Source of the DNA: Shigella phage sb4
Strand: one strand, 5' to 3'
Sequence record: PQ666542
Length of the DNA stretch: 64,000 nucleotides
Positions 14,888 through 16,207 of this stretch are shown piece by piece. The notes beneath the pieces were generated by a model. The model was not told where the DNA came from and did no database searches. It saw only the letters and a list, made by a program, of their open reading frames with translations. Position 1 is the first letter of the stretch. Every line of letters starts with the position of its first letter. The position numbers and the translations under genes are program-made.

Positions 14888-16207
14888 TCACACATAAAAC
14901 ACATCATAACGACCACGAGTGACACCAACATAAAGAAGCTGCTGAGCCAATTCAGCATCTGCATAATGAATACAAGGCGTATAGATGAAAGCACGATCTA
15001 CAGACATGCCCTGAGCTTTGTGGAATGTTGATGCGGGAAGTGCTTTCACTTTACTAAACTGTGATTTAGCATCCCAAAAATCACTCCACGGAGCTTTTCC
15101 ACCTTTATTCCAATTTTTATAAGTTTCTGCCGTTTAACCTAAAAATAGGTTAAACTTATACAGTTCTTCATCAGATGAAATTATTTTAATCTTTTCACGA
15201 TAATATTCATCATCGCCGTAAGTTTCTACTGTTAAATCCCAATGACGAATTAGATATTCCCCAGAAACACCACGAGCTTTAACAAATGTTGATGTATACT
15301 CTGCTTCTATAATACGAACTAATTGTCCGTTATTAAAAATAATTTCTGACACAGGCTTTCCATCAATTTTATATGTTTTAATTAATGGTTCCTGCATTAC
15401 AATAATTTCACCAACGATAAAATCTTTATCAGTTTCAAAAATCTTTTTGCGAATAATGCTATTTAACTTATCAACAGATTTATTCGTAAATGCCATTACG
15501 CGATTTTCAAACAAATCGTCTAGTGATTTTACGATTGAAAAATAATTTACCATAAAATCACGTAAAGCGGTATCACCAGTAAATCCACGTACTCCATGCC
15601 CGTCAACAACTTTATCATAAATCCACTTACCGTTGCGAACATCAGTAGCTACATCAATAATAGGAGCATTACTGCGTTTAACTTCAGTGAGTTCACACTG
15701 ATAAAAATCTTTATGTGTAAAGAACGGACTGATATAAGCGGTGTTTTCTCCTGGGTCAACAGGTCTAATTTGCTTATTATCGCCTATTCCAATTATAGTA
15801 CACCAAGGCGGGATAGTTGAAAGCAGAATTTTAATTAGCTTTCTATCATTCATTGACACTTCGTCGCAGATTAATACTCTACATTTAGCTAAATCTGGTA
15901 CTTCTTTTTGAACAAAAAGAACGTTTTCTTCATATGTTACTGGGTTAATTTTAAGAATACTGTGAATAGTACTCGCTTCTTTCCCTGATAGTTTTGAAAG
16001 AATCTTTTTAGCCGCATGTGTAGGAGCTGCTAAAATAATGCCAGTTTCGCCCGTAGATATTAAGGCTTCAATGATGAACTTAGTAAGAGTAGTCTTACCA
16101 GTACCAGCAGGTCCATTAATAGTTACATGATGTTTCTTTTCTTTAATAGCCCTCATAACGATGTTAAAGGCATTTTTCTGGCCTTCGGTCATAACATCAA
16201 ATGTCAT
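14888..16207 (-). CDS. dda: Dda DNA helicase (SF1B); in-frame TAA at 15134-15136
   Basis: track ORF 15134..16207 (Walker A GPAGTGKT) plus 81 in-frame codons to stop at 14888 = 439 aa. Confidence 0.9.

Follow-up and report, generated by a model that had tools for sequence, protein, structure and literature searches.

The dda Locus

The stretch of DNA analysed here (the window, 64,000 nt from Shigella phage sb4; PQ666542) is collinear from base 1 with Shigella phage pSs-1 (NC_025829 / KM501444; Tequatrovirus pss1), whose positions 1-63990 it follows with 96.9% identity and with the same gene order. The best match of the window in the phage collection stands at 97.1%. The window corresponds to the opening 64 kb of a Tequatrovirus (T4-like) genome near pSs-1. 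The helicase gene dda is located on the minus strand (14889-16208 in pSs-1), and the gene order around it, srd - dda.1 - dda - dexA.2 - dexA.1 - dexA, is kept as in pSs-1 and in T4, where dda.1 and srd likewise lie upstream and dexA.2, dexA.1 and dexA downstream. The following features can be distinguished at the locus:

14888-16207, minus strand: complete dda frame, 439 sense-codon positions (codon 358 being TAA) and the terminal TGA at 14890-14888
15137-16207, minus strand: N-terminal 357 codons, with AAA_30/AAA_19 and the first ~100 positions of the Dda SH3 (2B) domain
15134-15136, minus strand: in-frame TAA at codon 358, which is AAA (Lys) in relatives
14891-15133, minus strand: C-terminal 81 codons beyond the TAA, with the end of SH3_14 and UvrD_C_2

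From the ATG at 16207, the minus-strand ORF runs to the TAA at 15136-15134 and encodes 357 aa with the C-terminus FNLFLG. Past this TAA come 81 further sense codons in the same frame, TAETYKNWNKGGKAPW...VTRGRYDVFYV, up to the TGA at 14890-14888, and dda comprises 439 sense codons once the TAA is read through. The open continuation is not a product of chance, because it is ~98% identical to the C-terminus of Dda. A first-pass annotation of the sequence had described an in-frame TAA inside dda at 15134-15136, as well as an ORF ending in FNLFLG and followed by 81 in-frame codons to 14888, for a total of 439 aa; the sequence and its translation bear out the stop, and both coordinates and lengths are correct.

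It had also been proposed that the stop replaces a Lys, with an alignment to T4 Dda (439 aa) as the means of checking it. With the stop masked, residues 1-439 of the joined product align end to end and without gaps to T4 Dda (residues 21-459 of PDB 3UPU; E = 3e-293), with the stop taking the place of Lys358, as had been supposed. With respect to pSs-1 and ECp13, codon 358 has changed from AAA to TAA through one A>T on the coding strand, i.e., a T>A at 15136 on the plus strand, which is private to the window (in the sense defined below).

T4 Dda (an SF1B helicase; UniProt P32270; PDB 3UPU, 8GME and 8S9I) has the same 439 positions from end to end and the same Pfam architecture as the joined product, in which AAA_30/AAA_19, SH3_14 and UvrD_C_2 follow one another. 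AAA_30 covers residues 8-194 and corresponds to RecA-like domain 1A, with the Walker A motif GTGKT. Positions 1-101 of the SH3_14 profile match residues 260-356, i.e., before the stop, while profile positions 104-134 and UvrD_C_2 fall after it; this UvrD_C_2 portion is the rest of RecA-like domain 2A and includes the VGVTRGR motif. Tyr409, Pro411 and His414 of Dda contact the C-terminal peptide of gp32 (PMC11551737), and all three residues map to the part that the stop cuts off. A functional Dda calls for an uninterrupted frame, and the gene as written has none, since its 357 codons do not reach UvrD_C_2. Were the stop genuine, the last portion of 2B and the C-terminal portion of RecA-like 2A would be missing from the 357-aa product, which presumably could not act as a helicase.

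Distribution of the Interrupted Allele in Other Phages

The dda gene is present in 536 phage records, with nucleotide identities of 60-99% and, in 534 of these records, a coverage of 80% or more of its 1320 bases. No phage record contains an exact match to the 81 bases around the stop, the closest ones differing by three mismatches, whereas the pSs-1 version of the same 81-mer (with AAA) is found identically in 40 phage records. When a degenerate pattern was searched for in IMG/VR, it returned no contig with TAA fixed at codon 358 and five contigs with codon 358 left free. In these five contigs and in six other loci, codon 358 is AAA (11 of 11 loci read), and a Dda homologue truly ending in FNLFLG, the observation that the first-pass annotation had named as contrary to its reading, was not encountered among them.

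In-Frame Stops, Lost Stops and Frameshifts Across the Window

Interruptions of this type are not limited to dda. When the 129 CDS of pSs-1 were projected onto the window, 120 kept their length and constituted the frame-comparable set. In 25 of these 120 CDS, a total of 32 in-frame stops are observed (27 TAA, 5 TGA and no TAG), which replace Glu (11 cases), Lys (5), Leu (5), Gly (3), Ser (3), Gln (2), Trp, Arg and Tyr. The following stops, given with respect to the pSs-1 CDS, lie in genes for DNA polymerase, clamp loader and nuclease:

32043-32045, minus strand: DNA polymerase gp43, codon 178, GAA to TAA
33160-33456, minus strand: clamp-loader gp62, two stops, namely codon 45, GGA to TGA (first base 33456, minus strand), and codon 143, TCA to TAA (first base 33162, minus strand)
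33815-33817, minus strand: clamp-loader gp44, codon 245, AAA to TAA
38953-38955, minus strand: gp47 (SbcD-like nuclease subunit), codon 59, AAA to TAA

The 31 stops besides that of dda, mostly on the minus strand, have their first base at the following positions:

1090, 1770, 4471, 8001, 7251, 8077, 17890, 20340, 21154, 27896, 29290, 29209, 32045, 33456, 33162, 33817, 38955, 43549, 47104, 47374, 48067, 48046, 49185, 52992, 54455, 54263, 60897, 61779, 61752, 62155, 62089

Further stop-bearing genes are those of the topoisomerase subunit gp52 (codon 143) and endonuclease VII (codon 67), rIIA (codons 6 and 256), modA and imm (two stops). In nrdD, whose length differs from that in pSs-1 owing to a -1 frameshift, there is a stop at codon 263, upstream of this frameshift. 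The count of zero TAG among the 32 stops compares with 4.5 expected by random placement (P = 0.013), an absence that a simple random model leaves unaccounted for.

The opposite event is also found: two normal stops are lost in the window, one by TAA to AAA and one by TAA to CAA. Furthermore, the window carries three private frameshifts. These changes are located as follows:

10990-11409, minus strand: orthologue of pSs1_0021, extended by a lost stop (TAA to AAA or TAA to CAA)
12907-13407, minus strand: orthologue of pSs1_0025, extended by a lost stop (TAA to AAA or TAA to CAA)
16847: +T in a T7 run in srd
20048: +G in a G4 run in a Mrh-like gene
45308: -1 in nrdD

In pSs-1, by contrast, the genes are intact and private nonsense changes amount to zero, while the window adds ~370 private transversions, 32 in-frame stops and 3 frameshifts. 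T4 cannot replicate its DNA without genes 43, 44 and 62. Because stops interrupt replication genes on which T4-type phages depend, no replicating phage can have the sequence as written. Being one of 32 stops in the window, several of them in essential genes, the dda stop says nothing particular about dda. In the same way, since at least 25 genes are similarly affected, no interruption in the window is to be read as a pseudogene, as recoding or as readthrough.

Size and Spectrum of the Private Transversion Layer

Private substitutions were identified in a comparison of four genomes (the window, pSs-1, sb2 and ECp13; 62,825 shared columns) as those in which one genome differs and the other three agree. 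Their numbers and transition/transversion ratios (ts/tv) are:

Window: 844 private substitutions, ts/tv 0.94
pSs-1: 510 private substitutions, ts/tv 6.4
sb2: 509 private substitutions, ts/tv 3.1
ECp13: 677 private substitutions, ts/tv 2.4

The classes in excess in the window are A>T (93), T>A (102), C>A (99) and G>T (74), which together represent changes from purine to T and their complement, from pyrimidine to A (368 in total). The T>A at position 15136 in dda and the 367 other changes of this class are absent from pSs-1, sb2 and ECp13. The exchanges between C and G show no such excess, and the counts of A>C and T>G remain within the range of the other genomes. The layer extends over positions 1 to 64000 at ~5.9 per kb (roughly 0.6% of positions), with 12-32 changes per 4 kb; per site, G:C is affected ~1.7 times more often than A:T.

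No clear sequence context was detected within 7 bases on either side of the transversions, apart from a mild upstream enrichment in A/T, and homopolymer edges or motifs were hence rejected as their context. The transversions are uncorrelated with the private transitions of the window and moderately patchy at a scale of 250-500 bp (dispersion ~2), which suggests read- or coverage-level effects. The densest patch corresponds to gp62 (33025-33588), with 12 private transversions in 564 bp (21 per kb), followed by gp52 (188-1516), with 11 per kb vs. 5.9 overall; at the other end, gp61, gp42 and gp49 have 0-1.3 private transversions per kb.

Selection on Private Changes

The two kinds of private change differ in how they are distributed among synonymous, missense and nonsense effects. 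The 294 coding changes of the purine-to-T class (complement included) in the window comprise 54 synonymous, 214 missense and 26 nonsense changes, vs. 41, 222 and 31 expected at random. For the private coding transitions of the window, the observed values are 248, 100 and 3, vs. 112, 227 and 12 expected at random, which is the usual signature of purifying selection. The private changes of pSs-1 also bear this purifying signature. Regarding density, the layer reaches 5.63 per kb in 14 replication/essential genes, 5.86 overall and 4.5 in dda. Since its split matches the random one and essential genes are affected at an equal rate, the transversion layer was never exposed to selection. The dda TAA belongs to this record-private, unselected layer, which is found throughout the window and also inactivates essential genes.

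Applied to a gene of 1320 bp, the rate of the whole window predicts 0.7 private nonsense codons, with a probability of ~0.5 for at least one. Besides the stop, dda carries private changes of the same class at five positions (within 15806-16194, minus strand):

16194, minus strand: D5V, private transversion
16192, minus strand: L6M, private transversion
15850, minus strand: Y120N, private transversion
15835, minus strand: F125I, private transversion
15806, minus strand: P134, synonymous, private transversion

Together with K358*, these amount to six private changes of the purine-to-T class in the gene. Residues D5, L6, Y120 and F125 are identical between T4 and pSs-1, and all four are altered in the dda of the window; with respect to T4 Dda, the window thus shows the TAA in place of AAA at codon 358 plus the private D5V, L6M, Y120N and F125I. 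After the stop, 5 of the 5 differences from pSs-1 are synonymous and, in consequence, the C-terminal 81 codons have been kept by selection until now, which argues against an old pseudogene. A naturally decaying dda pseudogene was accordingly rejected as a candidate: there is no relaxed constraint downstream of the stop, the reading frame continues unbroken as far as the normal stop, and no other record has the allele.

Origin of the Interruption and Alternative Explanations

By population-genetic logic, the dda stop is very probably an artefact of sequencing, assembly or template damage. The window shows ordinary, selection-filtered divergence overlaid by unselected substitutions, almost all of them from purine to T or from pyrimidine to A, and the change from AAA to TAA at Lys358 is one strike of this unselected layer. 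We infer that the layer arose during the production of the sequence and not in the phage. Its possible sources would be: (i) errors of base calling or of the consensus where depth is low; or (ii) the copying of a damaged template. Most likely, the real phage encodes a normal Dda of 439 aa and the interruption is not biological.

As to the type of error, it is unusual for common platforms, as there are few indels and A:T sites are affected as well as G:C sites. Raw long-read error is argued against because indels are nearly absent beside ~370 substitutions, and a pure oxidative G>T artefact because A:T sites are also affected. Polymerases that copy opposite abasic sites follow the so-called "A rule", which yields changes from purine to T. 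By analogy, the purine-to-T spectrum, along with the preference for G, resembles the bypass of abasic sites in depurinated DNA, and it does not look like the error profile typical of a platform. In the literature on nanopore base calling, no error signature for DNA with glucosyl-hydroxymethylcytosine was found that matched the spectrum of the window; one source states in general terms that modifications induce read errors (PMC11610603).

Alternatively, the TAA could be a genuine nonsense mutation of dda, as an accessory helicase gene, in a viable phage, with the other stops of the window being artefacts. The T4 dda gene is dispensable and T4 dda mutants are viable. A dispensable dda would tolerate its loss, a single-base change is all that the stop needs, and fragmented dda annotations do exist in public records (e.g., that of Shigella phage sb1). 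Nevertheless, the change is a private A>T transversion, exactly the class of the unselected layer, and this layer alone predicts ~0.7 stops in dda; nothing sets the site apart from the artefact layer. To this must be added the four private missense transversions at residues conserved from T4 to pSs-1, and the exclusively synonymous change of the codons downstream of the stop, while the breaks in sb1 dda have other causes, in a record that itself looks error-laden. A genuine nonsense mutation is, all in all, very unlikely.

A related possibility concerns the physical nature of the layer. It is very unlikely, although conceivable, that the purine-to-T layer is real DNA in the form of a fixed imprint of massive depurination, for instance in an aged or harshly treated stock from which few molecules were amplified. 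In that event, the dda TAA would be physically in the DNA, yet as a signature of damage and not as a functional feature of dda. In a broader version, the layer would be the real DNA of a defective or heavily mutagenised genome, i.e., an amplified depurinated molecule or a non-viable genome kept by complementation. The purine-to-T changes, with G:C sites struck 1.7 times as often as A:T sites, would be what the "A rule" of abasic bypass leads one to expect, and the scarcity of indels among ~370 substitutions is unlike raw long-read error; but a consensus over many particles would average out independent lesions, and the joint TAA and TGA stops in gp43, gp44, gp62, gp47 and gp49 could be neither complemented nor suppressed in a pure stock. 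Moreover, patchiness at the scale of read length fits read-level error at least as well. A defective genome of this kind is therefore given only a slight chance.

Finally, the hypothesis that translation passes the in-frame stops (through codon reassignment, a suppressor tRNA or programmed readthrough) and yields full-length Dda has a virtually nil probability: the dda frame is indeed open for 81 codons past the stop, and T4-type phages have tRNA genes elsewhere in the genome (none were found within the 64-kb window), but two kinds of stop replace nine amino acids, as often as random substitution would predict, normal genes terminate in TAA and TGA too, and none of these positions has a stop in any relative. 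Recoding or suppression was rejected on the grounds of the two stop kinds, the nine residues and the random-expectation frequency; programmed readthrough, examined separately through the conservation of the stop in relatives, was rejected given the AAA in 11 of 11.

Taking up the artefact reading again, the dda stop is useful mainly as a quality flag for the window. Any stop, odd missense change or split gene found in it has to be weighed against ~6 unselected transversions per kb. In general terms, comparing the synonymous/missense/nonsense split of the substitutions private to a record with that of random placement provides a cheap test for error layers which does not need the reads.

Related Records and Minor Features of the Window

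Two related records contain interrupted genes of their own. In sb1 (PQ666539), dda (1501-2819 of the record segment) is annotated in three pieces, as a result of E234* (G>T), W373* and a 1-bp deletion. The excess in sb1 consists mostly of G>T/C>A and G>A, with little exchange between A and T, unlike that of the window. The two belong to different lineages, as they show 83 transition differences in 4.3 kb, and on this count it was rejected that both sequences come from one phage and differ through independent errors. In sb2 (PQ666540), the DNA polymerase gene (29880-32576) is annotated in two pieces, and there are 6 private nonsense changes, 5 of which are from purine to T or from pyrimidine to A.

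Codon 99 of dda (15911-15912, minus strand) has changed from GAA to GTT (E99V) through two adjacent A>T; this change is common to sb1 and, hence, not private, and it may be a real variant of the lineage of the window. Elsewhere, the orthologue of pSs-1 gp102 has a private in-frame insertion of 6 bp (ATAAAT-like) at 51950-51955.

The window, sb1, sb2, pSs-1 and Ec_YwIITB1 all begin at the same base, which suggests a reference-guided orientation on pSs-1. Lastly, four segments (43569-43751, 50597-51598, 57603-58124 and 61717-61848) diverge from pSs-1 much more strongly than the remainder of the window, with, for example, 27 non-synonymous and 9 synonymous differences in 183 bp, or 44 and 34 in 1 kb. 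These short divergent segments are probably mosaic exchanges with other T4-like phages.
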